Shown piece by piece: positions 25,307 to 57,613 of a stretch of DNA of 64,000 nucleotides. The notes beneath the pieces were generated by a model, which saw nothing but the letters and a program-made list of their open reading frames with translations, had not been told where the DNA came from and did no database searches. How positions within the stretch are numbered: position 1 is the stretch's first letter; every line of letters starts with the position of its first letter. Made by a program: the position numbers and the translations under genes. This DNA is from Candidatus Eiseniibacteriota bacterium (lineage in GTDB: Bacteria; Eisenbacteria; RBG-16-71-46; JABDJR01): positions 1,030,071 to 1,094,070 of the forward strand of contig CALOCN010000001.1 of assembly GCA_942491735.1 (NCBI GenBank), read 5' to 3'.

Positions 25307-25382
25307 ACGCAACAGCGTAGTGCAGCCTCTGGGGAACGTCGAGCGGATCACGCGCCGGGATTCGCGTGCGAAGGAGGTTTTC

Positions 25383-39626: not shown

Positions 39627-41669
39627 CTACGGGATCAACACGAGCCGCTGGACCGATTGGAACCCTCCCGCGCGAAGCCGGTACAGGTAGACCCCCGCCG
39701 GTGCCTTGCGTCCCAGATCATCCACGCCGTTCCACCGCGCGGTATGCGAGCCCGCGCCCAGATTCGTGCGAACCAGTTCCCGCACCCGCCGCCCGGCCAG
39801 GTCGAACACCTCCAGGGTCGCCGGACCGCTCTCGGCCAGGGTGAACCCGATCGTCGTGCTGGAACGGAACGGGTTGGGTACCGCGGAGTGCAGGGTCACC
39901 GCGGGGGTGATTTCCGGGTCGGGCGCGGCGAGGGGAGTGGCCTGGTACCCGAAGTCCTGGTCGGTCAGGCTGCCCGAGCAATCGGCGGCCAGTTTCGCCT
40001 CGTCCGGGGTGAGGATCCCATCCGGGTCGTAGGTCGGGGCGGCACCGCTGGGAACGGTGGTGTTGTCCACCCGCACCGTGTAGCGCCCGGCGGCCAGACC
40101 GGAGAAGGCGTAGGCGCCGCTTCCCGTGGTCGTTGCCGTGTCCAGGACGGCAAGCGATTCATCCAGGAGTTCCACCGTGACTCCCGGGAGTCCCGGCTCC
40201 CCGCTGCGGGTCTGGTCGCCGTTCTGATCGTCCCAGACTACGCCGGCCACCGTGCCGTCCCTGCGCGTGAACTCCCAGCGATCGGTGCGGAAGGTGATGC
40301 TTGCCCCGCTGTTGCTGATGAGGGTCGCCACCACGTTGATCAGCTCCCCGTTGCCCCCGTTGGAAACGGCGAACGGATCCAGGATGTCGTTGCCACCCCA
40401 GAGGTACGAGTCGTCGTTCACGAAGTCGGCCAGGGGAATGGTGATCTTCTGCCAGCCTCCGCCGGCGACCAGGTCACCTCCCGTGGCCTTGACGGTGAGC
40501 GTCGTCTCGAACTCGTCGTCCGCGCTCGGGGAGATGTTCCCGTCCCCGTTGTCGTCCTCCTGGAGCTGGATGATCAGGTTGTAGTCCTGCCCCGCATCCG
40601 GCTCGACCCACAGGCTGAAGTGGGTCATGCCGGTGAGGTCGTGGTGATTCTCCCGGCCAAAGCCGCCGAAGTAGCCGGGGCTGCCCCCGGCTCCCCAACC
40701 CACGTCGATGGAGCCGGCGCAACCCTCTCCCGGGGCCGAGGTGGTGGTGTTCTGGCCGATTCCGCCGCCGCCGATCCCGTTGAAGGAGAACCAGCCGTCC
40801 CCGTTGGGATTCCCGTTGTCCCCACCCGCGAAGATGATCGAACACCCCTCGAACTCCGGTCGTTGGTAGACGCGAACGTAGTCCACCACCAGTTCCTGCG
40901 GGAACACCGTGGTCCCGTCGGGAGGCCCGGGCAGGTTGCCGCCCACCGCCATGTTGAGCAGGATGTGCATGTCATGGTTGAACGGCGCGGGGTACTCGCC
41001 GCCGGTGGAATACCAGGTCTGCTGGCACGCGTAGAGTTCACCATCCACGAACCAGCGAAGTTCGTTGGGGGACCACTCGAGGGCGAAGGTGTGGAAGGCA
41101 TCGTTGAAGGTGCCGCTGGGGAGAACGTAGTCGTTCCCCGAGTAGACGTTCCCGGGAAACGCGTCGCCGTAGTGGATGGTCCCGAACACCTCGTCCGGGT
41201 TCTGCCCCACGTACTCCATGATGTCGATCTCGCCGCCCGCCGCCCAGCCCCCGTAGTTGTTGTCGGTGAAGAGAAGCCAGAAGGCGGGCCAGATTCCCTG
41301 GCCGATCGGCAGCTTGGCCCGCATCTCGAATCGGCCGTAGGTGAAGCTCATCGTGTTGCGGGTGACGAGCCGGGCCGACGTGTAGTTCCTCCCGCCAATC
41401 GACTCCTGCTTGGCGGTGATGGTGAGGTGTCCACCGGCCACCGTGGCGTTCTGGCTGCGGTAGTACTGCAGTTCGTTGTTTCCCCAGCCGCACAGGCTCG
41501 GACACCCGGTTCCGAGGTCGAACCCCCATTTGGTGCCGTCGACGGAGCTTCCATTGAACTCGTCCGACCAGACCAACTCGTAGTCCTGGGAGAGGGCCAA
41601 GGCGGGGCATAGGCCCATAAGCCCGGCGCAAGCCAGGACGACGATCGCAGCGCGGTGACATGCACCCAT
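39627..41669 (-). CDS. glycoside hydrolase family 16 (beta-glucanase/laminarinase-like), multidomain, with C-terminal FlgD-Ig/T9SS-like domain
   Basis: Internal ATG 41669 with AGGAG about 10 nt upstream; signal peptide; GH16 catalytic motif GEIDIMEY (ExDxxE); Gly/Asp-rich middle; Cna-B-like segment; C-terminal VPNPFRS...WNGVDDLGRKAPAGVYLY. Confidence 0.8.
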   Translation of the reverse strand: MGACHRAAIVVLACAGLMGLCPALALSQDYELVWSDEFNGSSVDGTKWGFDLGTGCPSLCGWGNNELQYYRSQNATVAGGHLTITAKQESIGGRNYTSARLVTRNTMSFTYGRFEMRAKLPIGQGIWPAFWLLFTDNNYGGWAAGGEIDIMEYVGQNPDEVFGTIHYGDAFPGNVYSGNDYVLPSGTFNDAFHTFALEWSPNELRWFVDGELYACQQTWYSTGGEYPAPFNHDMHILLNMAVGGNLPGPPDGTTVFPQELVVDYVRVYQRPEFEGCSIIFAGGDNGNPNGDGWFSFNGIGGGGIGQNTTTSAPGEGCAGSIDVGWGAGGSPGYFGGFGRENHHDLTGMTHFSLWVEPDAGQDYNLIIQLQEDDNGDGNISPSADDEFETTLTVKATGGDLVAGGGWQKITIPLADFVNDDSYLWGGNDILDPFAVSNGGNGELINVVATLISNSGASITFRTDRWEFTRRDGTVAGVVWDDQNGDQTRSGEPGLPGVTVELLDESLAVLDTATTTGSGAYAFSGLAAGRYTVRVDNTTVPSGAAPTYDPDGILTPDEAKLAADCSGSLTDQDFGYQATPLAAPDPEITPAVTLHSAVPNPFRSSTTIGFTLAESGPATLEVFDLAGRRVRELVRTNLGAGSHTARWNGVDDLGRKAPAGVYLYRLRAGGFQSVQRLVLIP

Positions 41670-41777
41670 GAATGGGACTCCTGAGGTTGCGGTGGGCCTA
41701 CGAGCATACCACTTTGATCTCTTATCGAACAAAGTCTTTAGTCAACTGCAACCGGTTGCTGGATATGCGTTTGTGGC

Positions 41778-43547
41778 CTATTGTCGCCCGAACAGGTTCA
41801 GCAACCCCAGGGTAAGCCATGGCACGTAGGTGATGAGCAGGACCCCCAGACCCAGGATGGCCAACATCGGCAGTGCCGCCCGGTAGATGCTCAACAACGG
41901 CTTCTCGAACCGGTAGGACGCGAAGAACAGGTTGAGACCGACCGGTGGGGTGAGGTATCCGAGCTCCAGGTTGGCGATGAAGATGATGCCGAGATGGATC
42001 GGGTGGATATCGAAGGCCGCGCCGAGATCCTTGATCAGCGGCACCACCACCACCGTAGCCGAGAAGATGTCCATCATGCAGCCCACCAGGAGCAGGAAGA
42101 CGTTCATGGTGAGCAGGAAGAGCCACTTGGACTCGATGTTGTTCTCCACCCAGTCCAGCAGGTGGGCCGGAACCTCGGCGTCCACCATGAAGCTCGAGAA
42201 TCCCATGGCCACGCCCAGGATCAGGATGACGCCGCCGATCAGGGCGATGCACTTGGTAAACACCCGGGGAAGGTCGCCGCGAAGCGAGAGATCCCGGTGG
42301 ATGAAGGTCTGGGTCACGAACGTATAGATCACCGTCACCGCGGAGGCCTCCACGATGGTGGCCATCCCGGTGTACAGGGCGATGAGCGGCACGAGAGGGA
42401 CTCCCAGTTCCCACTTCGCCTCCCACAGCGCGCTCATGGCCTCGCGGAAGTGGAACGCACTGCGGGTTACCCCCGAAGTGATCCCGGCCCGCATGCCCCA
42501 GGCCGCGACCATGGCGACGAGGACCACACCCGGAACGATGCCGCCGAGGAACAGATCCTCGATGGAGATGCCGGCGACGATGGCGTAGAGAATGAGCGGA
42601 AGCGCCGGGGGAAAGAGCAGTCCCAGCGAGCCCGATCCGGTGAGCAGCCCCAGGGAAAACCGGTCCGCATAGCCGTCCTGTCGCAGCGCCTGGTAGAGCA
42701 GCCCGCCCACCGCGAGAATCGTCACCCCGGAGCCGCCGGTGGGGATGGTGAAGAAGACGCAGATCAGAACGCAGACCAGTGCGGTTCCGCCCGGAATGAA
42801 ACCGAAGAAGGCCCTGAAGAATCGCAACAGTCGGTGCGACGAGTTCCCTTCGGCCAGAAGGAAACCCACCAGGGTGAACATGGGAAGGGCGGCCAGGGTC
42901 GGGTTGACCGCCAGCCGGTAGGTCTCCACCAGAACCGCGGCCGGTGTGGTCCCGTCCAGCATGAAGAGCAGGGCGGCGATGCCGCCGAGAGCCGCAAAGA
43001 TGGGGCCGCCGGCAAAGGTGGCGGCGAGGATGAGGATCAAGCCCGGAAGGAGTGCACTCCCTTCGATCAGCTCGTAGTTTCCACCCAGGAAGATCCCGCC
43101 GGCGAAGGCGGCGACGGCAAGGCCCTTCCCGATCCACCCCCCCTCGTTCTTCAGGGCAAGCCGAAGACCGATCAGGGCAAACGCCGCGGGAAGCACCACC
43201 TGGGTCGCCCACACCGGGATGTTGGCGGTGACAAAGGTGGGGAACTCCCGCTCGATCTGGACCAGTTCGAGACCGCCCCGTAGCAGCACCCCGGAGATGA
43301 GGGCGGCGACCAGGTTGGCAAAGCCCAGGAGAAGGGTCTTGGAACGACCCTCCCGGAGGATCTCCTTGGAGGCGAAGGAGAGCAGATTCCCTTCACGGGC
43401 AGCGAGGGCCGAGCCCAGGAACCCCACCCACAGGGTGAGGTGCTGGGTAATGGGCCCGGATCCACGCACCCCCCCCTCAAAGAAATTACGGGCAATGATG
43501 TTGGCGATGGGCAGGATGACCATGGCGGCGAGACAAAGGCTCACCAC
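41778..43547 (-). CDS. TRAP transporter fused small/large permease (DctQ-DctM fusion)
   Basis: 589 aa, hydrophobic throughout; N-terminal DctQ-like 4-TM segment followed by DctM-like domain. Confidence 0.8.
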   Translation of the reverse strand: MVSLCLAAMVILPIANIIARNFFEGGVRGSGPITQHLTLWVGFLGSALAAREGNLLSFASKEILREGRSKTLLLGFANLVAALISGVLLRGGLELVQIEREFPTFVTANIPVWATQVVLPAAFALIGLRLALKNEGGWIGKGLAVAAFAGGIFLGGNYELIEGSALLPGLILILAATFAGGPIFAALGGIAALLFMLDGTTPAAVLVETYRLAVNPTLAALPMFTLVGFLLAEGNSSHRLLRFFRAFFGFIPGGTALVCVLICVFFTIPTGGSGVTILAVGGLLYQALRQDGYADRFSLGLLTGSGSLGLLFPPALPLILYAIVAGISIEDLFLGGIVPGVVLVAMVAAWGMRAGITSGVTRSAFHFREAMSALWEAKWELGVPLVPLIALYTGMATIVEASAVTVIYTFVTQTFIHRDLSLRGDLPRVFTKCIALIGGVILILGVAMGFSSFMVDAEVPAHLLDWVENNIESKWLFLLTMNVFLLLVGCMMDIFSATVVVVPLIKDLGAAFDIHPIHLGIIFIANLELGYLTPPVGLNLFFASYRFEKPLLSIYRAALPMLAILGLGVLLITYVPWLTLGLLNLFGRQ

Positions 43548-43563
43548 CAGGTCCTCGGTTCGG

Positions 43564-43599
43564 CGGAGTCCCGTCCGCAGGGCCCCCCCCTTGGACTCC
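43564..43599 (-). promoter_or_regulatory. intercistronic stem-loop between TRAP binding-protein and permease genes
   Basis: ggagtcc ...22 nt... ggactcc inverted repeat in the 57-bp gap. Confidence 0.3.
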
Positions 43600-43606
43600 G
43601 TTGGCG

Positions 43607-44632
43607 TCAGCGGGAACCTCCCCCGGACGCATTGCCGGCCCGGAACTCGGCGCGGTACTTGACGGCCAGATCGAACACATCGGCCGGGACCAGTTCCTTC
43701 TGCATTTCGGTGGCAAACCTGGCCGCGGTGTTGGTCCAGCCCGGATCATTCCGGTCCACTTCCAGGACGGTCAGGCCCTTCTCCTTCATCGCCTCGATGG
43801 CCTCGACGTCCCCCACCTGGATGTCGTGGGTGAGGGCATCCTCGGACGCCTGGCTCGAGGTGAGAATGACCTGCTGGTCCTGGGGGGAGAGTTTTTCCCA
43901 GGCCTTGAGACTGACCACGTTGCCCCCGACCAGCGGCGCCAGACCAAGCCCCACCATGTAGGGAACCTGTCGGTACCACTGCAGCGCCAACGCGGCGAAC
44001 GGCGTGGTCGGCATGGCCTCGATGAGCCCCGTCTCGAGGCCGGTCATGATATCGGTGACCGCGAGCGGAACCGGGCTGAACCCGACCGAGGAGTAGACCT
44101 GTGCCATCCGGTCGTCACCGGCCCAGGTGAAGAACTTGATGTTGTTCATGTCGTTGACGCTGGTGATGGGCCGGGTCGAGAAGACATGGATCCACCCGCC
44201 GTGTCCCCAGTTGACGAACTTGAACCCCTTGGCCTCCACCCGTTCCCGGATCAGTGGGGTGAGCTTTCCGCGCACGTAGAGGAACTCGTCGATGGAATCG
44301 AAGAAGAGGGGGATCGAGAAGACGTTGAACACCTCGTCGATGGAAGTGAGCCCGGCCACGGTGAGCGCCGCGCCCTGGAGCTGTCCGATGCGCATCTTGC
44401 GCACCACGTCCGGATCGTCCCCGGCCACGCCGCCGGGATAGATGCGGACCTTGACCCGGCCGTCGGTCTCGGTCTGCCACTCGCTGCCCATCTGCTTGAG
44501 CAGCTTGTCCCAGGCGGATCCGTCCGGGGCGAGGGTGGCGAACTTGAGGGTGGTCTTCTTCGCCGCGGTCGCGGGAGAGATGACGCCCAGGGTGAGGATC
44601 GCGGCCAGCGCCGCGGTAGCAAGATGTCGCAT
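43607..44632 (-). CDS. TRAP transporter substrate-binding protein (DctP/TatP family)
   Basis: Signal peptide MRHLATAALAAILTLGVISPATA; DctP-like periplasmic binding protein by eye; start overlaps upstream stop by 1 nt. Confidence 0.75.
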   Translation of the reverse strand: MRHLATAALAAILTLGVISPATAAKKTTLKFATLAPDGSAWDKLLKQMGSEWQTETDGRVKVRIYPGGVAGDDPDVVRKMRIGQLQGAALTVAGLTSIDEVFNVFSIPLFFDSIDEFLYVRGKLTPLIRERVEAKGFKFVNWGHGGWIHVFSTRPITSVNDMNNIKFFTWAGDDRMAQVYSSVGFSPVPLAVTDIMTGLETGLIEAMPTTPFAALALQWYRQVPYMVGLGLAPLVGGNVVSLKAWEKLSPQDQQVILTSSQASEDALTHDIQVGDVEAIEAMKEKGLTVLEVDRNDPGWTNTAARFATEMQKELVPADVFDLAVKYRAEFRAGNASGGGSR

Positions 44633-45600
44633 CAGTCTGATTCCCCTTCCTCGAAGTCGTCGCTGAGGATGTAATCGTCAGCGTGCTCCAGCAGGTAGGT
44701 AGCCTTGCGTTGGGCCAGGATGTTGACGAGGCGGTATTGCGGCGCCTCGTCCACGTCCACCTTGAGCGCCCGCTCAAGGAGCCCGACGAATTCCGGTTTG
44801 TTCTGGGTCTGGATGGACACGCTCTGTGCCATGGTGACAAAGGTGCCGGCCTTCTCTCCCTTGGAGAGCTCGACCGCCCGGGCAAAGTGTCTGCGGGCGG
44901 CTTCGAGATCACCGCCCATCTCCTCGGGGAGCGCCTTGAGGATGATCATCACCTCGTGCAGCGCCCCCGCATCATAGGTTTCGTCCAGGACCAGGCAGTG
45001 GGTCAGCATGGCGGTGGGAATGGGTGCATCGGCGAGCAAATCCGCCCGATCCATCCCCAAACCGATCGCCGATCCCCAGGCGGCGGCAGTCCAGTAGAGA
45101 AAGTCGATGTGCTCGACCTTGACCCGGGTTACTGCCCCCTCCGGGTTGACCGCCAGGGAGTCCGAGAAGTGCTTGTAGTCGAGATCCAACGCCCGCATCC
45201 CGTAGTCGCGGCCCCGGAGATAGAGCTTCAGTGCCCGGGCCCGGAGCTCCTCGGCCCGTACCCAGTCCTCGTCCTCGATGAGGTCGGCCTCGGACTGGAC
45301 AAAGGCGTTGGCGTAGGAAGTGAATCCGGAACAGGCTGCCAGCAGGAGGGTCCGGTTCTCCGGAACATCGACCAGCAGCGTTTCCATCGTCTTGAGGGCA
45401 AATGGAAGGGCGTCACGCACGAGCTCGGGGTCGTCGTCGGTCGCGAAGACCTCGGCCGAGCCGGCGAACGTACCCGCCATGCTGTTGACCGCCATCTTCT
45501 TGATCGAACAACCATTGGCCACCAGGGCCAAGCCCACGAGCGCAAGCGCTGCAAAACCCCGCCATGCCCCCGGCTCGGGCCTGTGAAGCATCGGTTTCAT
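44632..45600 (-). CDS. TRAP-transporter-associated TPR-like lipoprotein (TatT-like)
   Basis: Lipobox LVANGCS; helical TPR-like composition; position directly upstream of dctP-like gene; assignment tentative. Confidence 0.5.
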   Translation of the reverse strand: MKPMLHRPEPGAWRGFAALALVGLALVANGCSIKKMAVNSMAGTFAGSAEVFATDDDPELVRDALPFALKTMETLLVDVPENRTLLLAACSGFTSYANAFVQSEADLIEDEDWVRAEELRARALKLYLRGRDYGMRALDLDYKHFSDSLAVNPEGAVTRVKVEHIDFLYWTAAAWGSAIGLGMDRADLLADAPIPTAMLTHCLVLDETYDAGALHEVMIILKALPEEMGGDLEAARRHFARAVELSKGEKAGTFVTMAQSVSIQTQNKPEFVGLLERALKVDVDEAPQYRLVNILAQRKATYLLEHADDYILSDDFEEGESD

Positions 45601-45778: not shown

Positions 45779-47821
45779 ATGAGTGTGCATCCCAGCGTGT
45801 GCCCCCTGGATTGTCCCGACGCCTGCAGTCTCGAGGTGACGGTGGAGGGGGGCCAGGTCACCACCGTCGACGGCGGCCACGCCAATCCCCTCACCGAAGG
45901 CTACATCTGCGCCAAGGTGCGCCGTTTTCCGGAGGCCATGTACGGTCCGGAGCGGGTGATGCACCCGGCCATCCGCGTCGGGGAAAAGGGATCCGGGCGG
46001 TTCGAGGACGTCTCCTGGGATGTCGCCCTGGACCGGATTGCTGAGCGGTTCGCCGCCGATCGGGACCGGTTGGGGGGGGAGTCCATCCTGCCCCTTTCCT
46101 ACGGGGGGTCCAACGGGCTGCTCTCCCAGGACACCACCGATGCCCGGCTTTTCCGCCGCCTGGGGGCGTCCCGGCTGGCCCGCACGGTGTGCGCGATTCC
46201 CACCGGATTGGCCGCGAAGGGGCTCTACGGGAAGATGGCGGGGGTGGCCTACCAGGACTATCGCGAAGCGGAGCTGGTGGTGGTGTGGGGAATGAACCCC
46301 CATGCCAGCGGCATTCATCTGGTGCCGCACCTGCAGGCGGCCCAGGACCGGGGAGCGAAGCTGGTCGTGGTGGATCCGCGTCGGATCAAGCTGGCCGATC
46401 GGGCCGATCTCCACCTCGCGCCCTATCCCGGCACCGACGTGGCTCTGGCCATGGCGGTGATCCATTGGCTGTTCGAGAACGGACACGCGGATACGGAGTT
46501 CCTCGCCGCCCACGCCGTCGGCACGGAGGCGCTGCGTGAGCGGGCGGCCGGGTGGACCCTGGAGAAGGCGGCCGGAGTGTGTCGCATGACACCGCAGGAA
46601 ATCGAGACCTTTGCCGGGTGGTTCGCGGAGGCCAACCCTGCGGTGATTCGCTGTGGATGGGGACTGGAACGGAATCGCAACGGAGGTTCCGCGGTGGCCT
46701 CGGTGCTTGCCTTGCCCGCGGTGGGAGGGAAGTTCGGGGTCCGTGGCGGGGGCTACACCATGAGCAACTCCGGCGTGTGGCCGCTCGAGTCGGATGCCGG
46801 CGCCGGGGTGAAGGAGACGAACACCCGCGTCGTCAACATGAACCGGATCGGTCGCGCCCTGACCGGGGACATGGATCCCCCGGTGACCAGTCTCTTTGTC
46901 TACAACTGCAACCCGGTGGCCACCCTTCCCAATCAGGATCTGGTGCGGCGGGGGATGCAGCGCGAAGACCTGTTCACGGTGGTGTTCGACTCGTTCTGGA
47001 CGGACAGCGCGCGGTTGGCCGATGTGGTGTTGCCCGCGTCCACGTTCCTGGAGCGGCGCGATGTCCGCAAGACCTACGGTGCCTTCGCCCTGCAACAGGC
47101 GCATGCGGTGGTGCCGGGAGTGGGGGAGTCGCGGAGCAACCACGACGTGTTCCTGGATCTGTGCCGGCGTCTGGAGCTGGAAGAGTCCGGGGATGCCATC
47201 TCCGAGGACGCCATGCTGGACGCGATGCTGGTCGGCAACCCGGACGGCGAGCGGATCGGGAGGGAGCTGCGGGAGAACGGGATCACCCTGCCTGCGTTCG
47301 GGGATCGGCCGGTGCAGTTCGTGGATGTGTTTCCCGGGACGCCGGACCGGAAGGTCCACCTGATCCCTGATGACCTGGATCGGGAAGCGCCCGAGGGTCT
47401 CTACGCATTCCGCAACGAGGCGCGACAGAAGACGTATCCGCTGGCGCTGATCTCCCCGTCCTCGAAGAAGATGATCAGCTCCACCCTGGGTCAGTTGGTG
47501 GAGGGGCAGGTTCCTTTGGATATCAACCTGGCCGACGCCAAGCCGCGGGGGATCTCGTCGGGGGACGAGGTGCGGGTATGGAACGATTACGGCGAGGTGC
47601 GTTGCCAGGCGCGGGTTTCCGGGAAGGTGCGGTTGGGGGTGGTGCAATTGCCCAAGGGGCTATGGGCCCGTCACACCACGAACGGGAACACCTCGAACGC
47701 GCTCGCCCCGGACACCCTGACCGACGTGGGGGGCGGTGCCTGCTTCAACGACGCCAGGGTCCAGGTGGAGAAGGCCGGGGGTGACGAGGCGGGGGCCGGA
47801 TTCCTCAGGCCAGTAAATTAA
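45779..47821 (+). CDS. molybdopterin-dependent oxidoreductase (DMSO-reductase superfamily)
   Basis: Internal ATG 45779; N-terminal 4Fe-4S motif CPLDCPDACSLEV; molybdopterin-binding C-terminal domain by eye; alternative start ATG 45698. Confidence 0.8.
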   Translation: MSVHPSVCPLDCPDACSLEVTVEGGQVTTVDGGHANPLTEGYICAKVRRFPEAMYGPERVMHPAIRVGEKGSGRFEDVSWDVALDRIAERFAADRDRLGGESILPLSYGGSNGLLSQDTTDARLFRRLGASRLARTVCAIPTGLAAKGLYGKMAGVAYQDYREAELVVVWGMNPHASGIHLVPHLQAAQDRGAKLVVVDPRRIKLADRADLHLAPYPGTDVALAMAVIHWLFENGHADTEFLAAHAVGTEALRERAAGWTLEKAAGVCRMTPQEIETFAGWFAEANPAVIRCGWGLERNRNGGSAVASVLALPAVGGKFGVRGGGYTMSNSGVWPLESDAGAGVKETNTRVVNMNRIGRALTGDMDPPVTSLFVYNCNPVATLPNQDLVRRGMQREDLFTVVFDSFWTDSARLADVVLPASTFLERRDVRKTYGAFALQQAHAVVPGVGESRSNHDVFLDLCRRLELEESGDAISEDAMLDAMLVGNPDGERIGRELRENGITLPAFGDRPVQFVDVFPGTPDRKVHLIPDDLDREAPEGLYAFRNEARQKTYPLALISPSSKKMISSTLGQLVEGQVPLDINLADAKPRGISSGDEVRVWNDYGEVRCQARVSGKVRLGVVQLPKGLWARHTTNGNTSNALAPDTLTDVGGGACFNDARVQVEKAGGDEAGAGFLRPVN

Positions 47822-47895
47822 GTACTTTCTTGACAATAGTTTATGACTTTCCCTGGGGAAAGTCGCTCGGGTTTCGGCGGCGGTAGGTGCCTGTT

Positions 47896-48646
47896 TGTCC
47901 ACCCGGGTGGACAGTGTTCGCCCTCTCTCCGACGCCTGGTAGAGTCACCGCATGCTCGACGACCGCCACGATCACCGGGTTCATTGTTGGCGACAACCCT
48001 GCCGAGTTGACCTTCGCCGTTGAGGTCGACGACCATCGGACGTTGGATGCGACCTTGCCCGCGGTGCCGATCGTCGCCGACGCCGGAGCTACGGAGCGTC
48101 GGCGCTACGTCACTTTCGAGGCACGCCGGCGATACTCCCACCCACGCGGCATTCGACCAGGACATCCTGGGCATCCACCCCGACTATCGGGTGGAGATTC
48201 GACTCGACATCCTGGAGGAGATTGACGGTCCCATGTTGCGGCACGGCCTTCAGGAGATGCACGGGGTTCAGCTTCAGGTGCCGGCCCGCAGGGAGCTCAG
48301 ACCGGATCGCGATCGACTTGCGGTTCGGTACGACCAGTTTCGCGCCGGGGGATCCGGGTCGTCACCGGTCCACCCGGGTGGACGCTCACCCGAACGTACC
48401 GGCGGTTGCTCGTGCTTCCCTAAACGTGTCAGCCACCGGGGTCATCTCCACGGAACAGGTGCTGGGCGTGTGGGGACTCCGACGCGCGTTGCTGCATCCC
48501 AGTTCAACAGCCCGTGGGGCTCCAGTGAGTTTGAGTGCGTCGCCGCCCTCGACTCAGCGCTCTTCACACCCGTCCACCCGGGGCGAATCCACGCTAAGTG
48601 CGCCTCCCAGTCCCCTTGAACCGGGCCATGGTCCACCCGGGTGGAC
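47896..48646. repeat. three copies of a 16-bp perfect palindrome GTCCACCCGGGTGGAC (plus one half-site) in an 880-bp gene-poor gap
   Basis: Copies at 47897-47912 (18-bp version 47896-47913), 48368-48383, 48631-48646; half-site 48572-48583. Confidence 0.8.
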
Positions 48647-48701
48647 TCAGCCACCCGGCCTCGGGTCCCCCCGCCGGTTTCACCTGCGCTAGAATCCCGT
48701 C

Positions 48702-49691
48702 ATGCCAACCAACGTACCGCCGCAATGGCGTGCCCTCGAAGAGGAGTATCGCCAGGCCACCGATCACGACGAGAAGATCCGCCTCCTGGAAGAGCTGCTC
48801 CGGACCGTCCCCAAACACAAGGCGACCGACCGGCTCCAGGCGGACCTCAAGTCCAAGCTGGCCAAGCTCCGCAAGGAACCCAAGAAGAAGGCCGGGGCCG
48901 GGGCGGGTCCCAGCCACACCATCGCGCGCGAGGGGGCCGGCCAGATCGCCCTGGTGGGGCCGCCCAACGGGGGGAAGTCGTCGCTGCTTGCGGCCCTGAC
49001 CCACGCCGAGCCCAGGATCGCCGACTACCCCTTCACCACCCGCGAACCCCAGCCCGGCATGATGCGACACGAGGACGTCCCGATACAGCTGGTGGACCTC
49101 CCGCCGCTTTCGGACGAGCACGTGGAGCCGTGGGTCTACGACAACATCCGTCGCGCCGACGTGGTGTGGCTGGTCTCGGACAGCGGCCAGGCGCTGGATG
49201 GAGTGGAGCTGTGTCTGCGCCTCACCGATCCCAAGCACGTGGGTCTGGTCCCGGCCGGGCGCGAGGTGGACGGGGAAGGCAAGCCCATGGGCTGGATGCC
49301 CAAGCCCACTTTCCTGGTGGTTACCGGCATGGACAAGCCGGATGCCGCCGGGAATCTGGAGATCCTGCGGGAGTTGCTGGAGATCCCGTTTCCTGTCTTC
49401 CCCGTTTCCGCCCCCACTCTTGCAGGAACTCCCGAGCTGGCCGCCGCCACCTGGAACCAGCTCGGCAGGATCCGCATCTACACCAAGGAACCGGGCAAGG
49501 AGGTGGACCGCACCACCCCGTTCATCGTTCCCCTGGACTCCACCGTCGAGGACCTCGCACGTCACATCCACAAGGACCTTGCCGAGCGGCTCAAGTTCGC
49601 CAAGGTGTGGGGAACCGGCGTGTTCGACGGCCAGCAGGTCCACGCTGAACACACCCTGCACGACAAGGACGTCGTCGAGCTTCACGACTAG
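48702..49691 (+). CDS. DRG-family GTPase (Obg-related, with C-terminal TGS domain)
   Basis: G1 motif [11 protein letters not shown]; N-terminal coiled-coil and C-terminal IRIYTKEPG...[11 protein letters not shown] aligning by eye with DRG proteins; TAGAAT 6 nt upstream of ATG. Confidence 0.75.
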
Positions 49692-49739
49692 ATCCCCAGT
49701 CTTGCCGCCGCCTTCCCGATCCGTCAGTATCCCCCGACC

Positions 49740-50672
49740 ATGACCTCCGTCGGCACGCCTCCCATCGAAGCGATAGGCCTCGTCAAGCGCTACGGCGACC
49801 TGACCGCGGTGGCCGGTATCGACTTCGCGGTGGCGCCCGGGACCTGTCTCGGGCTGCTCGGTCCCAACGGGGCCGGCAAGACGACCACCATCGAGATCCT
49901 GGAGGGGCTGCTGGATCCGGACGCCGGCGAGGTCCGGGTCATGGGGCGCACCTGGAAGGAGGGCGGCGATGCCATCCGTCAGGGCATTGGGGTGCAGCTC
50001 CAGGAAACCAAGCTACCCGAGAAGCTCACCGTCATCGAGGTGCTCAACCTCTTTCGCAGCTTCTACCGCGAGGGGCGGGATCCGGAAGAGGTCATGGACC
50101 TGATCGGCCTCACCGAGAAACGCACCGCCCGGGTGACCACCCTTTCCGGGGGGCAGCAACAACGTCTCGCCCTCGGTTGCGCCCTGATCAACCACCCCAA
50201 ACTGCTGTTTCTCGACGAACCCACCACCGGTCTGGATCCCCAGGCCCGCCGTCGGGTGTGGGAGATCGTCGAGGAGTTCAAGGCCGAAGGAGGAACCGTC
50301 CTCCTCACCACGCACTACATGGACGAGGCCGAGCGGCTCGCCGACGACCTGGTCATCATCGACCATGGCAAGGTCATCGCCACCGGGAGCCCGGCCGAGA
50401 TCATCGCCTCCCTGGGGGTGGCCAGCATTGTTTCGTTCCAGACCCTGGAGGCGGTGCACGATATCGCCTTCGACGGCCTGCCCGGCGTGGCCTCGGCGCG
50501 TGCCGACGGGGAACGGACCGAGCTCACCGTCTCCGAACCCCATCTCGCCCTGCAGGCCCTTCTGGATGCCCTGCGCGACCGCGACCTGAGCGTGGCCGAT
50601 CTGCGGACCCATCGACCGACGCTCGAGGATGTGTTCGTTTCCCTCACCGGCAGGCACCTGCGCGATGAGTAG
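49740..50672 (+). CDS. ABC transporter ATP-binding protein (ABC-2/DrrA-like)
   Basis: Walker A GPNGAGKTT, signature LSGGQQQRL, Walker B LLFLDEPT. Confidence 0.9.
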   Translation: MTSVGTPPIEAIGLVKRYGDLTAVAGIDFAVAPGTCLGLLGPNGAGKTTTIEILEGLLDPDAGEVRVMGRTWKEGGDAIRQGIGVQLQETKLPEKLTVIEVLNLFRSFYREGRDPEEVMDLIGLTEKRTARVTTLSGGQQQRLALGCALINHPKLLFLDEPTTGLDPQARRRVWEIVEEFKAEGGTVLLTTHYMDEAERLADDLVIIDHGKVIATGSPAEIIASLGVASIVSFQTLEAVHDIAFDGLPGVASARADGERTELTVSEPHLALQALLDALRDRDLSVADLRTHRPTLEDVFVSLTGRHLRDE

Positions 50673-51802: not shown

Positions 51803-54800
51803 TCAGCGCACCCGCACCACGCGCCGCATCGCGGTCACGTCCGGGGTTTCCACCCGGACCAGATACACCCCGGCCGCCACAAGCGCCCCCTGCGTGTTAC
51901 GTCCATCCCAACGCAACTCGTGGGCTCCGCTTTTCAGCACGCCGTCCTTGAGCGATCGCACCAGTCGCCCGGACGCGTCGAACACCCGCACCCGCACCGG
52001 TCCCGCGGTCGCCATCTCGAACTGAAGTCGCGTGCCCAGTGAGAACGGGTTCGGGAACGCGGCCAGCGCCACCGGCGACACGACGGGCGTATCCGCGGCA
52101 AGGATGGGCTCGGCGGTGCGGAAGTGTCCCTGGTTGCGGCCGGCCACCCCGGGCCGGAACCAGCGCGTGGCGGGGAAGTAGGGCGACGGCGTTCGCAGCC
52201 GCCACTGCACGGAGTAGAGCGTGGATGGATTGAGCCCGGTGAGCTGGTTCAGGAGCTCCGTGGAGGAACCCAGGCTCCCCACCACCGGTCCGGTCTCGGC
52301 CCAGCCGCTGTACCAACTGATGCTGAGATCTCCCAGGTAGGGGTGGTCCGAGGTCGGATAGATCCACCACTCCTGCCGGATCCGGGTGCGCCCGGCCGGG
52401 CTCTGGGCACGCCCGGTATGGATCTGGATCTGATCCGGTAGGTCGGTCGTTCCCAGACGGGAAACCGGTTGCCCCCCACTGTTCCGGATCTGGGGCCGGT
52501 GTGGAGTCTGCCAGAACTGCGAGGTCCCTCCGCCGGGGTAGCTCCACACCCGCCCCCGCTGACTGATTCCTCCATTGAGGTAATCGACTGCGGACCCGGC
52601 CGGATCGCAGAAACCATCCCCGTTGAAGTCACCGGCCGCCACCGCCCAACCACCGTGCGCGCCCGCCTGGTTGGACCCCGACCACCACGCGCCAAACCCG
52701 CCCACCTCCATCACGCCCCACCGGCCTTCCGTGTTCTGGCCGTCGGTGTAGTAGGGCGCCCCCGCGACCAGGTCTCCCAGCCCGTCCGCGTTCACGTCCC
52801 CGGCGTCGGCCAACGCGAATCCCAGGTTGGCTCCGGTCTGGCCGCCCCACTCGGAGCGGCTGATGTTCTGGTATTCCAGCCGCACCATGCCTTCGTTGCT
52901 GAAGGTGCTGGTGGCCCACGGTGCTCCCATGGCCACGCCGTCCTCGTGGCCGTTGGGGGAGGCCACGGCGGCGAGCGCGTAGCCCAGCTGGATCCCGGTC
53001 GGGAACGGAGTCAACGACGACCCCTGCCATTCCCAGGTGGGGGTGGTCTCCGGTCCGGTGGGTCCGCCTCGGTACCCCCGCACCAGTCCCTCGTCATCCG
53101 CATTGTCGTCGAAGAGCGGGGCCGAGACGAACAGGTCGGTGTACCCGTCCCCATCCTTGTCGCAGGCCGTAACCGCGAAGCCGAACGCGCACCCGGAGTG
53201 CGGCCCGGTGACCGTCCATACCGGGGTGGCGGCCAGCCCGGTCGGCGACCCCAGGTAGCAGAACGCCGCGCCCAGGTTGCTCGACCCGTAGTCCTTCGCC
53301 CCGACGATCACATCGGCGTAGCCGTCTCCGTTGACGTCACCCGCCGAGGCCACCGCGTTCCCCACGAAATCCGAGACGCCCCCCACGGTGCTGAACCAGT
53401 TCGCCACGGCTCCCGGACCGGTGGCCGATCCGTGAAACAGGTACGCCCTCCCGGAGTTCGCACCACCTCCGTTGTCCCCGCGCGCCCCCACCAGCACGTC
53501 GTCGAACCCATCCCCGTTCACGTCTCCGGCGATGGCCACCGAGGAGCCGTGCCAGTCGTAGACCGCGTTCCCTTCATGGGTCCAGGGAGCGGGGAGGGTC
53601 GTGCTGAGCCCCAGGGACCCGCCATAGACCAGCTCCACCCGTCCCGCCTCCGTACCATGGATCCCGTCGTAGAACGGCGATCCCACCAGGAGATCCTCGT
53701 ACCCATCCCCGTTGACATCCCCCCCGCTCCCCAGGGACTGGCCGTATTGTTCGCCGGTCTGGTCCCCGAAGATGGCGAATCCGCCCGTGGTGGCCAGGCC
53801 CTCGGCCCCGCCCTTGAAGAGCCGGACCCGACCCGCGTTGATGTTGGCTCCATCGTCGTAGATGTATTCCGCTGCGAGGTATTCCGAGAACCCGTTTCCA
53901 TCGACGTCACCGGCGGTGGCCACGCAGTGACCCAGGGCCGCCCAGTCCTGGGTGCCGTTCAGGTACCAATCGAAGTTCGCGCCGATCCCCGTCGCCGATC
54001 CCGAGTAGCCCAGGATGCGCCCCGCGTTGGTGGCCCCGTACCAGGGGACGCCCACCATGAGATCGGCGTAGCCGTTCCCGTCCAGGTCGCCGGCCGGGGC
54101 GACCGAGAACCCGAACTGGTCGCCGCTCCCTCCGCTGAGGATACGGCTACCGGTGTTGGTGAGCCCCGTCGCCGTGCCGTAGCAGACGATGACCCGCCCG
54201 GCCTGGGTGGCCAGGGGGTAATCCGGAGCGCCGATGGCGGCGTCGGCATAGCCGTCCCGATTGACGTCGCCGGCCAACGAGACACAGTGACCGTAGCGTG
54301 CGTTGGCCGCGGGCCCGACCAGGGTCCAGGTGTCCAGGGCGTAGGTTCCGGTGGAGCTCCCCAGATACAATTGGACCTGGCCCGCCTCGGGCGAGGCAAG
54401 ACCGGGATTGTAGCCGGGGGATCCCACCAGCCAGTCGGAGTAGCCGTCGCCGTTGACGTCCCCGCAGGTCGACACGCTGTAGCCGAACTCGGAACCACTC
54501 GTGCCGCCTCCCACCCATCCGGTGCTGGTGGAGAGGCCGGTCGAGGAACCCAGGTGCAGATAGGCGCGACCCGGAGAGCCGAAGGTGGCTCCCCATTCCG
54601 GAGCGCCGATCAACACGTCGCAGTACCCATCCCCGTTGACGTCGCCCGCGGTGGCGACCGAGAACCCGGTCCTGGATTGGCTGCTCCCCACGCGCTCCCA
54701 ATCCGGGGTGGTGGAAAGCCCGGTCGCCGAACCCAGGTAGAGATAGGCGTACCCGCGGTTGGAGTCCGCGAACGGAGCCCCCACCAGGACGTCGTCGTAG

Positions 54801-55159
54801 CCGTCGCCGTTCACATCCCCGGCCGGGGCCACCGAGTAGCCGAACTGCGCTCCTGATCCACCGTGGGTCACGTCCCAATCCGGCGTTGCCCCGAGACCGG
54901 GGTAGGCATTGCCGTGGTAGACATACGCGCGGCCGTCCCCGTCCATGGGTGCCCCCACGATGACATCGGTGAACCCATCGCCGTTGACGTCACCGGCCGG
55001 AGCCACCGATTCGCCGAAGCGGCTCCACGCCGGGCCGGACTCGGACCAGCCGCCATAGGTGATGGCGGGGGTGGCGTCGACGACGTTCGGGGTGGTCTGC
55101 GCGGCGAGGATCAGAACGAGTAGAGCCCGGATGGCGGGCCGGCGGAAAACCGATCTCAT
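51803..55159 (-). CDS. large secreted FG-GAP/VCBS-repeat protein with C-terminal FlgD-Ig/T9SS-like domain
   Basis: 1118 aa; signal peptide; more than 12 repeats of AGDVNGDGY.D..VGAP; AGGAGG 6 nt upstream of ATG; C-terminal FPNPFS...RWDGRNTQGALVAAGVYLV. Confidence 0.8.
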   Translation of the reverse strand: MRSVFRRPAIRALLVLILAAQTTPNVVDATPAITYGGWSESGPAWSRFGESVAPAGDVNGDGFTDVIVGAPMDGDGRAYVYHGNAYPGLGATPDWDVTHGGSGAQFGYSVAPAGDVNGDGYDDVLVGAPFADSNRGYAYLYLGSATGLSTTPDWERVGSSQSRTGFSVATAGDVNGDGYCDVLIGAPEWGATFGSPGRAYLHLGSSTGLSTSTGWVGGGTSGSEFGYSVSTCGDVNGDGYSDWLVGSPGYNPGLASPEAGQVQLYLGSSTGTYALDTWTLVGPAANARYGHCVSLAGDVNRDGYADAAIGAPDYPLATQAGRVIVCYGTATGLTNTGSRILSGGSGDQFGFSVAPAGDLDGNGYADLMVGVPWYGATNAGRILGYSGSATGIGANFDWYLNGTQDWAALGHCVATAGDVDGNGFSEYLAAEYIYDDGANINAGRVRLFKGGAEGLATTGGFAIFGDQTGEQYGQSLGSGGDVNGDGYEDLLVGSPFYDGIHGTEAGRVELVYGGSLGLSTTLPAPWTHEGNAVYDWHGSSVAIAGDVNGDGFDDVLVGARGDNGGGANSGRAYLFHGSATGPGAVANWFSTVGGVSDFVGNAVASAGDVNGDGYADVIVGAKDYGSSNLGAAFCYLGSPTGLAATPVWTVTGPHSGCAFGFAVTACDKDGDGYTDLFVSAPLFDDNADDEGLVRGYRGGPTGPETTPTWEWQGSSLTPFPTGIQLGYALAAVASPNGHEDGVAMGAPWATSTFSNEGMVRLEYQNISRSEWGGQTGANLGFALADAGDVNADGLGDLVAGAPYYTDGQNTEGRWGVMEVGGFGAWWSGSNQAGAHGGWAVAAGDFNGDGFCDPAGSAVDYLNGGISQRGRVWSYPGGGTSQFWQTPHRPQIRNSGGQPVSRLGTTDLPDQIQIHTGRAQSPAGRTRIRQEWWIYPTSDHPYLGDLSISWYSGWAETGPVVGSLGSSTELLNQLTGLNPSTLYSVQWRLRTPSPYFPATRWFRPGVAGRNQGHFRTAEPILAADTPVVSPVALAAFPNPFSLGTRLQFEMATAGPVRVRVFDASGRLVRSLKDGVLKSGAHELRWDGRNTQGALVAAGVYLVRVETPDVTAMRRVVRVR

Positions 55160-55252: not shown

Positions 55253-57613
55253 CTAGGACTCCGGTCCCGCAAGTCCCCGATACCGTTCGGCTTCCGTGGG
55301 TTGATTCAGGGTTTCGTAGAGGTCGGCCAGCACGCCGGCGATCTTCCGGGTGTTGGGGTGCTCCGGTCCCGACAGGCCCACCATCGCGTCGTAGACCCCG
55401 GTAAGGATCGGCTCCGCCTCGGCCGGCCGTCCCAGATCGATCAGGGACAGAGCGAACGAGCCGCGGAAGCTCTGGGTGCGCACATCCGCGTCTCCCAGAA
55501 GGCTGTCGGCGATGGCCAGGGCCCGTTCGTGGAAGGGGATCGCTTCCGCCGGTCGATCCATGTTGTAGAGCTGCTTGGCCACCGCGTTGTATCCCATGGC
55601 GGTGCTGGAGTTGAGTTCTCCCAACACCCGGATCTTGTCCTTGAGGACCTGCTCGAACGTCTCCAGGGCCAGGGCCTGGTCCCCGTTGGCGTTGTAGAGA
55701 TAGGCCAGGTTGTTGTGCATGACCAGCACGTCGGGGTTGTCGGCGCCATAGAGAGCGATTCCCATTTCGCAGGCCGCCGCCATGAGCGGGGTGGCCTCGT
55801 CCAGCCGGTCCACCTGCCAGAGCAGGTTCCCCAGGGCGCCGGCCATGACGAAGGTGACCTCGCTCTGGTTCCCAAAGGACGCCCGTGCCCGGGCCAACGC
55901 GTCCTCGATGTGCGGGATGGCCTCCTCCAGACGTCCGTGCGCTTCCTCGAGCCCCCCCAGGAAATGCAGCGCATCGATGATCTCCACCCCGCGCGGATCC
56001 AGGCGGGGCATCACGCCCCGGATGCGTACCGCCATGGAGTCGGCCGAGTCCAGCCGCCCCGTGTCGATGAACACGTCTCCCAGGGACTCCAGGGGTGGGT
56101 AGAGCCGCGGATCCCCCGGCTCCAGGATCGCGTCGAGCCGGGCCAGGGCGTGGCGGAAGTGGTGCTCCGCGTCCTCGTACCGCCCCATGCCGCGATAGGT
56201 GTCTCCCAGGGACAGGTGGGCGCTGGCCGCGACTTCCGGCAGATCTCCCAGCTCGCGGTCGATCACCGAGGTCGCGTTGCCCAGGACATCCAGGACCCGG
56301 ACGTCCGGGCCCGACTCCCAGGGATCCGGGGATTCCAGCAGGGTGACCATGAACTCGCTCAGCACCCGGGACTTCTCGGCTTCCGTCTCGGCCCGGGCGC
56401 GTGCGTGCTCGGCGCGCGACCAGCCGGCCACCGAAACGATCAGCCCGGCCAGGAGCACGGCCACCCCGGCCGCCCCGGTGAGCACCACGCCCCGGTTGCG
56501 CTTGGCGAACTTGCGGAACTGGTACACCGTGCTGGGGGGACGGGCCAGGATGGGCTCGCTGTCCAGGAACCGTTGCAGGTCGGCGGCCAGTTCACCGGGG
56601 GATCCGTAGCGCTGTTCCTTGTCCTTCTCCAGGCACTTGCGAACAATGGTCTCGAGGTCCGAGGGAAACCGCTGTTCCCCGTCCCCCAGCGAACTCGGCT
56701 CGTCCTCCTCGATCACCCGTGCCGCCTCGATGAGGCTCTTCCCCTGCAGCGCCTGCGGCAGGCGATCGGTCAACACCTCATAGCACAACACACCGAGGGC
56801 ATAGACGTCGGACCGGGTGTCCAGTTCGTCCTGCTGCCCGCGCACCTGCTCGGGGCTCATGTAGGGGAGGGTGCCCACGACCTGTCCCGCGTCGGTGCGG
56901 AAGGTGGTGGCCCGGACATCGTCGTCGAGGTGGCGCGCCACCCCGAAGTCGAGAATCTTGGGTTGCCCGTCCGGGCGGACCAGGATGTTGGCCGGTTTCA
57001 GGTCGCGGTGGACAATGCCGTTCTGGTGCGCGTGGTTGACCCCTTCGCACACCCGGATCAGGAGCTCGATCCGGTCCTTCGTGGAGAGCTTCATCTCGCG
57101 GGCAAACTCGGTCAGGGGGAGCCCGTCGATCAACTCCATGACGAAGTAGGGTTGCTGCCCCAGGGCCGCTCCGGTGGTCCCCGCATCGTAGACCCTGGCG
57201 ATCCCCGGGTGATCCAGTTGTCCTAGAAGCTCGGCCTCCAACTCGAATCTTTGCAATGCTTTGCGTGATAGGGCATCCCCTCGAATCAGCTTGAGGGCGA
57301 CGTCCCGGGAAGGCTGTTCCTGATGGGCGCGAAAGACCACACCCATGCCCCCTCCGGCGATGATGCCCTCGAGGCGGTAGCTGCCGATGGTCTTCCCCAA
57401 CCAGGCGTCCTCGCCTCCGATCGAGGCGATGGCGGAACCGCCCAGGAACTCTCCCGCCCGGGCGCCCGCCTGGAGCAGGGAGATCACCTCGGACTCGAGC
57501 TCGGTGTCCTCGCCGCTCTGATCCCGGACGAACGCCAGCCGCTCTTCCTCCGGAAGCTCGATGGCCTGATCGAACAACTCGCTGGCCCGGGCGAAGAGGT
57601 CGCGGGACGTCAT
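55253..57613 (-). CDS. Ser/Thr protein kinase with C-terminal TPR-like region and one transmembrane segment
   Basis: Internal ATG 57613 overlapping sigma stop (ATGA); catalytic loop HRDLKPANIL, DFGVA, SPEQ; TM segment GVVLTGAAGVAVLLAGLIVSVAG. Confidence 0.85.
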   Translation of the reverse strand: MTSRDLFARASELFDQAIELPEEERLAFVRDQSGEDTELESEVISLLQAGARAGEFLGGSAIASIGGEDAWLGKTIGSYRLEGIIAGGGMGVVFRAHQEQPSRDVALKLIRGDALSRKALQRFELEAELLGQLDHPGIARVYDAGTTGAALGQQPYFVMELIDGLPLTEFAREMKLSTKDRIELLIRVCEGVNHAHQNGIVHRDLKPANILVRPDGQPKILDFGVARHLDDDVRATTFRTDAGQVVGTLPYMSPEQVRGQQDELDTRSDVYALGVLCYEVLTDRLPQALQGKSLIEAARVIEEDEPSSLGDGEQRFPSDLETIVRKCLEKDKEQRYGSPGELAADLQRFLDSEPILARPPSTVYQFRKFAKRNRGVVLTGAAGVAVLLAGLIVSVAGWSRAEHARARAETEAEKSRVLSEFMVTLLESPDPWESGPDVRVLDVLGNATSVIDRELGDLPEVAASAHLSLGDTYRGMGRYEDAEHHFRHALARLDAILEPGDPRLYPPLESLGDVFIDTGRLDSADSMAVRIRGVMPRLDPRGVEIIDALHFLGGLEEAHGRLEEAIPHIEDALARARASFGNQSEVTFVMAGALGNLLWQVDRLDEATPLMAAACEMGIALYGADNPDVLVMHNNLAYLYNANGDQALALETFEQVLKDKIRVLGELNSSTAMGYNAVAKQLYNMDRPAEAIPFHERALAIADSLLGDADVRTQSFRGSFALSLIDLGRPAEAEPILTGVYDAMVGLSGPEHPNTRKIAGVLADLYETLNQPTEAERYRGLAGPES

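Follow-up and report, generated by a model that had tools for sequence, protein, structure and literature searches.

Short palindromes recur in several described settings. The operator arrays of phage repressors and the controller-protein boxes of restriction-modification systems consist of identical, operator-size palindromes, several to an array, whose flanks are unrelated. Repetitive extragenic palindromic (REP) sequences and bacterial interspersed mosaic elements (BIMEs) are short GC-rich palindromes repeated in noncoding DNA just after genes, and ParB/Noc-type proteins recognize 16-bp palindromes within or between genes. Precedents of another type are ordinary bacterial pseudogenes, among them decayed defense genes that form oversized spacers, and the phosphorothioate-sensing sulfur-binding-domain HNH (SBD-HNH) enzymes (NF045808) and TagI, which resemble the intact nucleases discussed below in their HNH_2 core and the module that follows it, in being encoded by solitary genes for ∼300 amino acids (aa) with an N-terminal noncatalytic domain, and in their occurrence in defense neighborhoods and on plasmids. 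Here we describe a locus that shares features with all of these. It is an 880-bp gap between two genes in a 64,000-nucleotide stretch of contig CALOCN010000001.1 from a Candidatus Eiseniibacteriota bacterium (hereafter, the window, to which coordinates refer unless another locus is named), and it holds protein-like fragments together with three copies of a 16-bp perfect palindrome, GTCCACCCGGGTGGAC.

An initial annotation, made from the sequence alone, had placed this gap at 47822 to 48701, and we confirmed that it extends from the stop codon of a molybdopterin oxidoreductase gene (47819 to 47821; Pfam domains Molybdopterin, Molydop_binding, and Fe4S4) to the ATG of a DRG/TGS GTPase gene at 48702. 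Taken as a whole, the gap is probably best explained as an inserted, dead HNH_2 nuclease gene, with palindromes that are not the lesions of that gene and that may bind a protein. The features on which this explanation turns are as follows.

47822..48701, unstranded: the gap, 880 bp, a lineage-specific expansion of a spacer of 2 nt (locus L126) or 126 nt (locus L127/L128)

47897..47912, unstranded: palindrome P1, 18 bp when the flanking T/A is included, 75 nt past the oxidoreductase stop and 49 nt upstream of the point where the relic is truncated

47962..48135, plus strand: pseudogene piece 1, profile positions 128 to 182 of the nuclease family (domain E value, 1.9e-10)

48139..48142, plus strand: junction marked by a +1 frame shift and by the absence of 55 profile positions (183 to 237), those of the HNH_2 catalytic core

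48143..48346, plus strand: pseudogene piece 2, profile positions 238 to 305, the conserved C-terminal module (domain E value, 3.7e-30)

48368..48383, unstranded: palindrome P2, starting 13 to 18 nt past the stop position of intact relatives

48572..48587, unstranded: degenerate palindrome copy, 13/16 matches

48631..48646, unstranded: palindrome P3, with 55 nt between its end and the DRG start codon

24539..24554, unstranded: fourth exact palindrome copy, in the YegS_C domain of a lipid kinase gene (24398 to 25450, minus strand)

The two protein-like stretches reported in the gap are real. GC content by codon position is periodic in two different plus-strand frames, with coding-type periodicity at ∼47950 to 48100 in one frame and ∼48130 to 48340 in the next, and the switch falls near 48100 to 48140. 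Homology searches (tblastn and two profile hidden Markov models) identified both stretches as remnants of one ancestral gene, at 47962 to 48135 and 48143 to 48346. A composite of the two retrieved 92 proteins, mostly of the PF13391 (HNH_2) family, with a best E value of 9e-30, and single database proteins of ∼200 aa carrying PF13391 align across both fragments. The raw open reading frames (ORFs) of the gap had no match in Pfam or NCBIfam, because the catalytic domain is deleted, and homology emerged solely with the composite query. The composite has no Pfam match either, whereas intact relatives do, and their HNH_2 domain maps into the segment that the relic is missing. A 307-position profile of the full-length family, run against the six reading frames of the gap, matched pieces 1 and 2 and nothing else on either strand. 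Piece 2 is 60 to 70% identical to intact relatives.

The damage to the gene is extensive. The relic lacks the first 127 codons, the 55-codon HNH core with its signature (CxxC ... AAHI ... N ... C..HH; Pfam HNH_2), and the native stop, expected at ∼48350 to 48355; it offers no complete ORF with an N-terminal domain, a start, and a stop, and its two pieces lie in different frames. Having lost its first 127 codons, the HNH core with a +1 frame shift, and its stop, it cannot encode the nuclease, and since the catalytic core is gone, we regard it as a relic and not as a functional member of the family. As judged from these alignments, the core of the gap is a pseudogene of a solitary, horizontally mobile HNH_2 nuclease of ∼307 aa, and what remains of its coding sequence most likely has no present function. 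Insertion, truncation, internal deletion, frame shift, and stop loss are what ordinary bacterial pseudogenes display; what sets this relic apart, and is not accounted for by ordinary decay, is the perfectly conserved, identical palindromes on either side of it.

This structure is not an assembly artifact, because two independent assemblies reproduce the parts that they cover. Logan contig L125 (run ERR9669565) has 99.9% identity to the stretch from 47845 to 49889 and includes the frame junction and all three palindromes, and contig L001 (run ERR9670067) is 100% identical over 48210 to 49889 and, among the palindromes, covers only P2 and P3. The differences in L125 are one nonsynonymous single-nucleotide polymorphism (SNP) in the relic and one indel in a G run of DRG. 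At the latter place (L125 position 1124, window position 48969), L125 has one G fewer, which splits the gene call (210-aa product P0094); the probable cause is a minor variant or an error of assembly.

We then examined the family to which the relic belongs. A scan of metagenome contigs with the family alignment returned 80 loci, which contain 59 full-length ORFs, and extension of these ORFs gave a real family length of ∼305 to 307 aa, in which the HNH_2 core is preceded by an N-terminal domain of ∼125 aa and followed by a conserved module of ∼70 aa at the C terminus. Many public gene calls for the family, at 190 to 225 aa, are thus N-terminally short; most of those retrieved (P0001 to P0092) measure 75 to 225 aa versus ∼305 aa for the conserved ORF (L145 to L224) and use internal starts or are fragments. 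P0048, P0052, and P0088 are among the contigs in which the conserved C-terminal module lies behind a scrambled upstream part, as it does in the window. Intact relatives match PADLOC HNH models and, over the HNH and C-terminal half, the model NF045808 ("phosphorothioated DNA-binding restriction endonuclease") with E values of 1e-14 to 4e-18; their scores of 54 to 65 bits, however, fall far under the curated cutoff of 180, which places the family, on sequence grounds, among the relatives of NF045808 and not among its members. The only relative in PDB found by profile is the SRA-HNH enzyme TagI (6GHS), a weak match (E values of 0.02 to 0.18). The N-terminal domain (RVPLxGPQGIFKPA ... YRYRGxDPxHxDN) had no Pfam or PDB match in the searches made, which is a further difference from NF045808, and the window copy has lost both this domain and the catalytic core. 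Relatives adjoin BREX genes, toxin-antitoxin pairs, or a second HNH_2 gene, and some reside on plasmids of Proteobacteria, Actinomyces, Bacillus, and haloarchaea. These profile matches and gene neighborhoods describe a family of solitary, horizontally mobile, defense-type nucleases with a distant relationship to the modification-dependent (type IV-like) restriction endonucleases.

The position of the relic was compared with the same position in other genomes. The source organism has no close relative in the databases (its best DRG homologue is 68% identical), and the named relatives by DRG homology belong to the Gemmatimonadota and Acidobacteriota. The order molybdenum oxidoreductase-DRG is kept in the two nearest loci, L126 (DRG, 68% identical) and L127/L128 (65%), and both loci lack an HNH gene and the palindrome. 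Because the flanking genes are 2 nt apart in the former and 126 nt apart in the latter, from oxidoreductase stop to DRG start, comparison of the spacers shows that the gap is DNA which this lineage gained by insertion, between two genes that lie side by side in the nearest relatives available. The 2-nt distance in L126 also suggests that the two genes form an operon there. Two short elements lie between the oxidoreductase stop and P1.

47845..47864, plus strand: hairpin GACTTTCC-CTGG-GGAAAGTC, 24 nt past the oxidoreductase stop, terminator-like but with a short T run only

47872..47886, plus strand: TTCGGCGGCGGTAGG, resembling a stretch 9 to 23 nt upstream of the DRG start in L128 (TTC-GCGGCGGTAGG)

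The hairpin was not called by a terminator scan. The similarity between TTCGGCGGCGGTAGG and the L128 spacer reached a score attained by 1 in 1,000 shuffles, five comparisons having been made. TTCGGCGGCGGTAGG may, tentatively, represent the ancestral DRG promoter region, now stranded to the left of the insertion, and since it lies left of P1 and resembles the DRG-proximal spacer of L128, the left edge of the inserted DNA would be at P1. Support for a target-site duplication around the insertion is weak, as the observed score was reached by 68 of 2,000 and 179 of 1,000 shuffles. The gap had no DNA match to plasmids or phages, in collections where the lineage is poorly represented.

We next turned to the palindromes. 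The three exact copies of GTCCACCCGGGTGGAC reported previously were found at 47897 to 47912, 48368 to 48383, and 48631 to 48646, and the accompanying "half-site" corresponds to GTCCACCCGGGgcgaa at 48572 to 48587, which matches at 13 of 16 positions. Copy counts for the source organism refer to the 64-kb window. The fourth exact copy had escaped the initial annotation; it is read in frame (..ESTRVDS..) in a DAGK/YegS-type lipid kinase, so that it cannot be a simple 16-nt insertion, and a rough estimate puts the chance of such a coding copy at ∼1e-3 per window. Markov models of orders 1 to 5 predict 2.5e-4 to 1.3e-3 occurrences of the exact 16-mer per window, and matches with at most two mismatches number 5 versus 0.24 expected (100 dinucleotide shuffles). 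GTCCACCCGGGTGGAC is the only repeated perfect palindrome of at least 12 bp in the window, and none of the intergenic regions of the window outside the gap has a copy. The cluster is real and statistically striking. The flanks of the copies are unrelated beyond 16 to 18 nt, and the three copies in the gap bracket the relic with all 16 bases identical within otherwise decaying DNA, which points to constraint or to a recent origin at the DNA level. Their center-to-center spacings of 471 and 263 bp amount to 44.9 and 25.0 helical turns. Elsewhere in the window, the 8-nt half-site shows no overrepresentation, and on that ground we rejected the idea that it is a genome-wide uptake-type motif.

A scan of genome contigs for the 16-mer yielded at least 118 loci; among the matches listed, none is homologous to the window. 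These matches are mostly chance-level singletons, ∼20 of them fall in one conserved actinomycete coding sequence, and still others form the apex of a longer hairpin specific to its genome. Three patterns go beyond chance. In at least 11 loci from metagenome-assembled genomes (MAGs) of Chloroflexota (Thermomicrobiales/Chloroflexia), the 16-mer lies near an orthologous Macro-domain gene (30 to 66% aa identity; L008, L030, L040, L055, L057, L059, L062, L070, L074, L075, and L118, and also L019, L041, and L095), mostly directly upstream of it but ∼3.3 kb upstream in L055, L057, and L075. In L055, it heads a cluster of genes for an extracytoplasmic function (ECF) sigma factor, a 798-aa protein, the Macro-domain protein, and a 455-aa protein, and in L095, an ECF sigma gene directly follows it. 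A canonical parS site (GTTYCACGTGRAAC) lies 24 to 79 bp from the 16-mer in seven of the Chloroflexota loci. The 16-mer is often followed by TG-extended -10 elements, and in several of these genomes such elements belong to the Macro-domain gene, which shows that the 16-mer can occupy promoter-proximal positions elsewhere. The lower stems of the extended Chloroflexota palindrome vary between genomes yet remain complementary, and the palindrome has no Rfam family match.

The second pattern concerns CAYTPZ01 (L027, L044, and L108) and JACNKJ01 (L076 and L080), two MAGs of uncultured bacteria whose contigs end in a multicopy repeat of 200 to 400 bp or more. The 16-mer of L027, L044, L108, and L076 is inside the repeat and is followed by TTTTTGT (terminator-like), and L080 shares the repeat but has its 16-mer outside it; the repeat is possibly the end of an insertion sequence or of another repeat. 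The third is the viral contig IMGVR_UViG_3300002966_000056 (26.8 kb; GC, 0.36; L133, L135, and L139), with three exact 16-mers, for which the chance is ∼1e-11 per position. Pfam searches on the genes beside the palindrome in low-GC viral and Bacteroides loci revealed no common family.

Single loci showed further arrangements. In L132/L136 (GC, 0.33 to 0.37), the 16-mer lies between repeats of GGACATTTTTGTCC. Positions 5740 to 5831 of L106 (a Bacteroides MAG; GC, 0.48) carry four related palindromes in tandem, ∼22 to 26 nt apart (CCACCCGGGTGTAC, GTCCACCCGGATGTAC, CACCCGGGTGTAC, and GTCCACCCGGGTGGAC), an arrangement that looks like an iteron or operator array. In L026, L043, and L114 (two MAGs), the 16-mer is ∼20 nt from the palindrome TTGTACACGTGTACAA, of the form TACA-NN-TGTA, which we take to be the pattern of a BlaI/CopY-type box. 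L120 has a perfect palindrome of its own, CCCACGTTAACGTGGG, at 5170 to 5199 and 6485 to 6500, once extended to 30 bp and just after two consecutive genes; it illustrates genome-specific palindromic repetition at the ends of genes. A literature search for the 16-mer returned no papers.

We also considered the lesions of the gene and a possible product of the gap. According to the initial annotation, an ancestral gene might have had its frame shifted by the insertion of palindromic elements of 16 bp. A gene remnant does exist, and P1 lies where the N-terminal coding region of the full-length gene would have been, but no palindrome lies closer than 226 nt to the frame change at 48139 to 48142, which falls where the 55 codons of the HNH core have been lost. 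In silico removal of P1, P2, and P3 in every combination never put the two pieces in one frame and restored no continuous ORF. We therefore reject this mechanism, because the frame change sits at the loss of the core and deletion of the palindromes joins nothing, and consider it barely credible, although P1 could still have had a part in the 5′ truncation. An association between the nuclease gene and the palindrome was likewise rejected in both directions: among the matches listed, the HNH_2 gene is absent from the at least 118 palindrome loci of other genomes, and the 16-mer, at up to two mismatches, is absent from the 80 loci with intact relatives (238 kb) and from 4 further loci. Systematic flanking palindromes of any kind were also absent from these 4 plus 80 loci. 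The comparisons show that the three palindromes are neither the lesions that killed the gene nor part of the normal surroundings of the family. That the gap encodes a functional product, be it a small protein, a programmed-frameshift gene, or a noncoding RNA, is highly improbable as well. Piece 2 keeps strong codon periodicity along with its identity to intact relatives, several public contigs likewise show the C-terminal module with a scrambled upstream part, and the minus-strand fold of 48353 to 48701 has a z score of -2.9. Against this, the catalytic core, the sensor half, and the native stop are gone, recurring C-terminal fragments are expected when the best-conserved part is used for searching, the excess of folding stems from pairing between P2 and P3, and the only population SNP in the relic is nonsynonymous. 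A gene read through programmed +1 ribosomal frameshifting was ruled out, since joining both frames still leaves 55 and 127 profile positions missing. Rfam 15 found in 47000 to 49500 only a chance-level match to a small nucleolar RNA outside the gap (E value, 0.45), and the noncoding-RNA or small-protein locus proposed initially is unsupported: there is no Rfam match, no significant excess of folding on the plus strand, and no homologue of the P2-P3 segment in the one frame searched. That segment is described by the following line.

48384..48630, unstranded: spacer between P2 and P3, 247 nt, with no clear codon periodicity, no HNH-family fragment in any frame, and no Rfam match

A search for a second gene relic in this spacer, with the plus-strand frame 48384 to 48689 against 1.84 billion representatives, gave one compositionally biased match (E value, 3e-5). 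As RNA, the 16-mer folds with only -7.6 kcal/mol and is outcompeted by other pairings at P2 and P3. Its hairpin is not extended by flanking complementarity and no U tract follows any copy, so that the palindromes do not have the makeup of intrinsic terminators; a scan of 47700 to 48800 found no terminator-like sites, and 20 palindrome-bearing loci of other genomes had no Rfam match.

What the palindromes do is less certain. Given their symmetry and setting, we tentatively favor the possibility, raised in the initial annotation as an operator array, that they are binding sites of operator type, on double-stranded DNA, for a dimeric protein. The likeness to phage repressor operator arrays and controller-protein boxes lies in the several identical, operator-size palindromes with unrelated flanks and in the proximity of the sites to promoter-like elements and to a restriction-type gene. 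Two such elements follow P1 and P3.

47937..47954, plus strand: TGGTAGAGT, a putative extended -10-like element followed after 6 nt by the ATG of a 23-codon out-of-frame ORF, 24 nt downstream of P1

48690..48704, plus strand: TAGAAT, a putative leaderless-type promoter 43 nt downstream of P3, separated by 6 nt from the DRG ATG, which lacks a Shine-Dalgarno sequence

In L128 (∼655 to 673), the DRG gene, whose product is 65% identical, is likewise preceded by TAGGCT and 7 nt, with no Shine-Dalgarno sequence; a -10-like hexamer 6 to 7 nt before the ATG, both here and in L128, suggests that the DRG mRNA may be leaderless. A regulator bound at the in-phase palindromes would control transcription that enters the relic and the DRG/ABC-transporter genes, which the insertion would have separated from their former upstream neighbor. 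Several points weigh against the operator reading. No candidate binding protein was found among the ten genes scanned around the gap, and arrays and controller boxes differ in this respect as well as in having spacings of tens and not hundreds of base pairs; we know of no controller-box motif that the 16-mer resembles. Within the gap, a simple promoter scan detects nothing of the sigma-70 type, and the two-hexamer scan does not pick up TGGTAGAGT. The AT-rich island with TTGACA (47830 to 47835) noted after the oxidoreductase stop is present, but no matching -10 element was found by the scan. No promoter-like element accompanies P2, the distance to the -10-like element is not the same for P1 as for P3 (a difference of ∼16 nt), and helical phasing as good as that seen would arise by accident in about 1 case in 10. 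The Chloroflexota sites are often extended into longer hairpins, whereas the window copies are not, and the parallel itself may be a coincidence, given ∼65,000 different 16-bp palindromes and the very many genomes scanned.

Other roles account for some of the same observations. If the palindromes were selfish or structural repeats similar to REP sequences or to miniature inverted-repeat transposable elements (MITEs), they would have spread in the genome and accumulated in dispensable DNA, with no regulatory role beyond a possible stabilization of mRNA or binding of nucleoid proteins. This is somewhat unlikely, even though the gap copies lie in noncoding DNA soon after gene ends (P1, 75 nt past the oxidoreductase stop; P2, 13 to 18 nt past the former HNH stop), other genomes have their own repeated palindromes after genes (such as CCCACGTTAACGTGGG, twice in L120), and CAYTPZ01 and JACNKJ01 carry the 16-mer inside their multicopy repeat of 200 to 400 bp or more. 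REP elements and BIMEs differ from the window palindrome, which is only 16 bp, perfectly symmetric, and devoid of a conserved flank or 5′ tetranucleotide; the 64-kb window holds one such locus and one coding copy, and no gene for a REP-associated tyrosine transposase (RAYT) was seen. No copy occurs in its other intergenic regions, several of which measure 250 to 600 nt, the flanks are unconserved, the hairpin is weak and lacks flanking complementarity, and the copy at 24539 cannot stem from insertion of a 16-nt element, since the kinase frame there is intact. Pairs of palindromes at the P2-P3 spacing (232 to 262 nt apart) were not found in metagenome contigs, a weak test since the lineage is absent there. 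Site-specific recombination, in which successive integrations leave N+1 core sites bounding N segments in a cassette-like array, fits the three identical sites that bound two unrelated segments within the lineage-specific insertion, the truncation of the relic 49 nt from P1 and its end 13 to 18 nt before P2, and the resemblance of the stretch left of P1 to the ancestral DRG-proximal spacer, which would make P1 the left junction; an adjacent deletion caused by the recombinase would explain the 5′ truncation. We nevertheless hold this to be unlikely: no recombinase was found among the ten genes scanned, such sites never flank the intact members of the family, no palindrome lies at the internal deletion of 55 codons, and a perfectly symmetric site lacks directionality, which is unusual for natural att/attC sites. 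Features of integron attC sites were also missing, as neither GTTRRRY nor RYYYAAC cores lie beside the palindromes and no integrase is encoded by the ten scanned neighbors. Loading sites for a chromosome-organizing protein of the ParB/Noc type would, like the 16-mer, be 16 bp long with perfect dyad symmetry and could occur inside genes, which would suit one exact copy in a coding sequence 23 kb from a cluster of three; the Chloroflexota 16-mer is close to canonical parS in seven loci, and Noc sites share the central CCCGGG with it. The outer positions, however, are entirely different, the window has no match to parS (TGTTNCACGTGNAACA) at up to two mismatches, no ParB-like gene was identified, and there is no replication-related skew feature, all of which makes this role very unlikely. 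An idea involving the terminus, dif, or skew was rejected, since the GC skew at third codon positions simply follows gene orientation. Finally, GTCCACCCGGGTGGAC could be the recognition site of an uncharacterized, widely distributed palindrome-binding protein, with the window cluster as a local binding array, regulatory or centromere-like, that would have arrived with, or been selected in, the inserted DNA. This reading draws on the conservation of the 16-mer in Chloroflexota, beside parS and ahead of the Macro-domain/ECF sigma cluster, and on its three copies in the 36%-GC viral contig; we consider it improbable.

The wider neighborhood contained several other genes. At 39627 to 45600 and 51803 to 55159, the window encodes a tripartite ATP-independent periplasmic transporter with a TAtT component (TRAP-T; DctP, a fused DctQM, and TAtT) and two large secreted proteins (GH16 and FG-GAP repeats) with C-terminal domains of the FlgD_ig type, and a 905-aa Ser/Thr kinase with tetratricopeptide repeats is encoded at 55253 to 57970.

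The main value of these results is corrective. The protein-like fragments have an ordinary explanation: they belong to a nuclease gene that was acquired horizontally, lies within a lineage-specific insertion, and is now dead, and the gap is thus the site of a decayed defense nuclease, and not of a hidden gene, a recoding event, or a gene split by palindromes. For the family, the results show that many public gene calls are N-terminally truncated, at ∼200 aa versus a real length of ∼305 aa. If the palindromes do bind a specific protein, they would represent regulatory or organizing sites that were carried in with, or recruited onto, an inserted defense gene, and they would provide a link to the conserved Chloroflexota motif beside parS.

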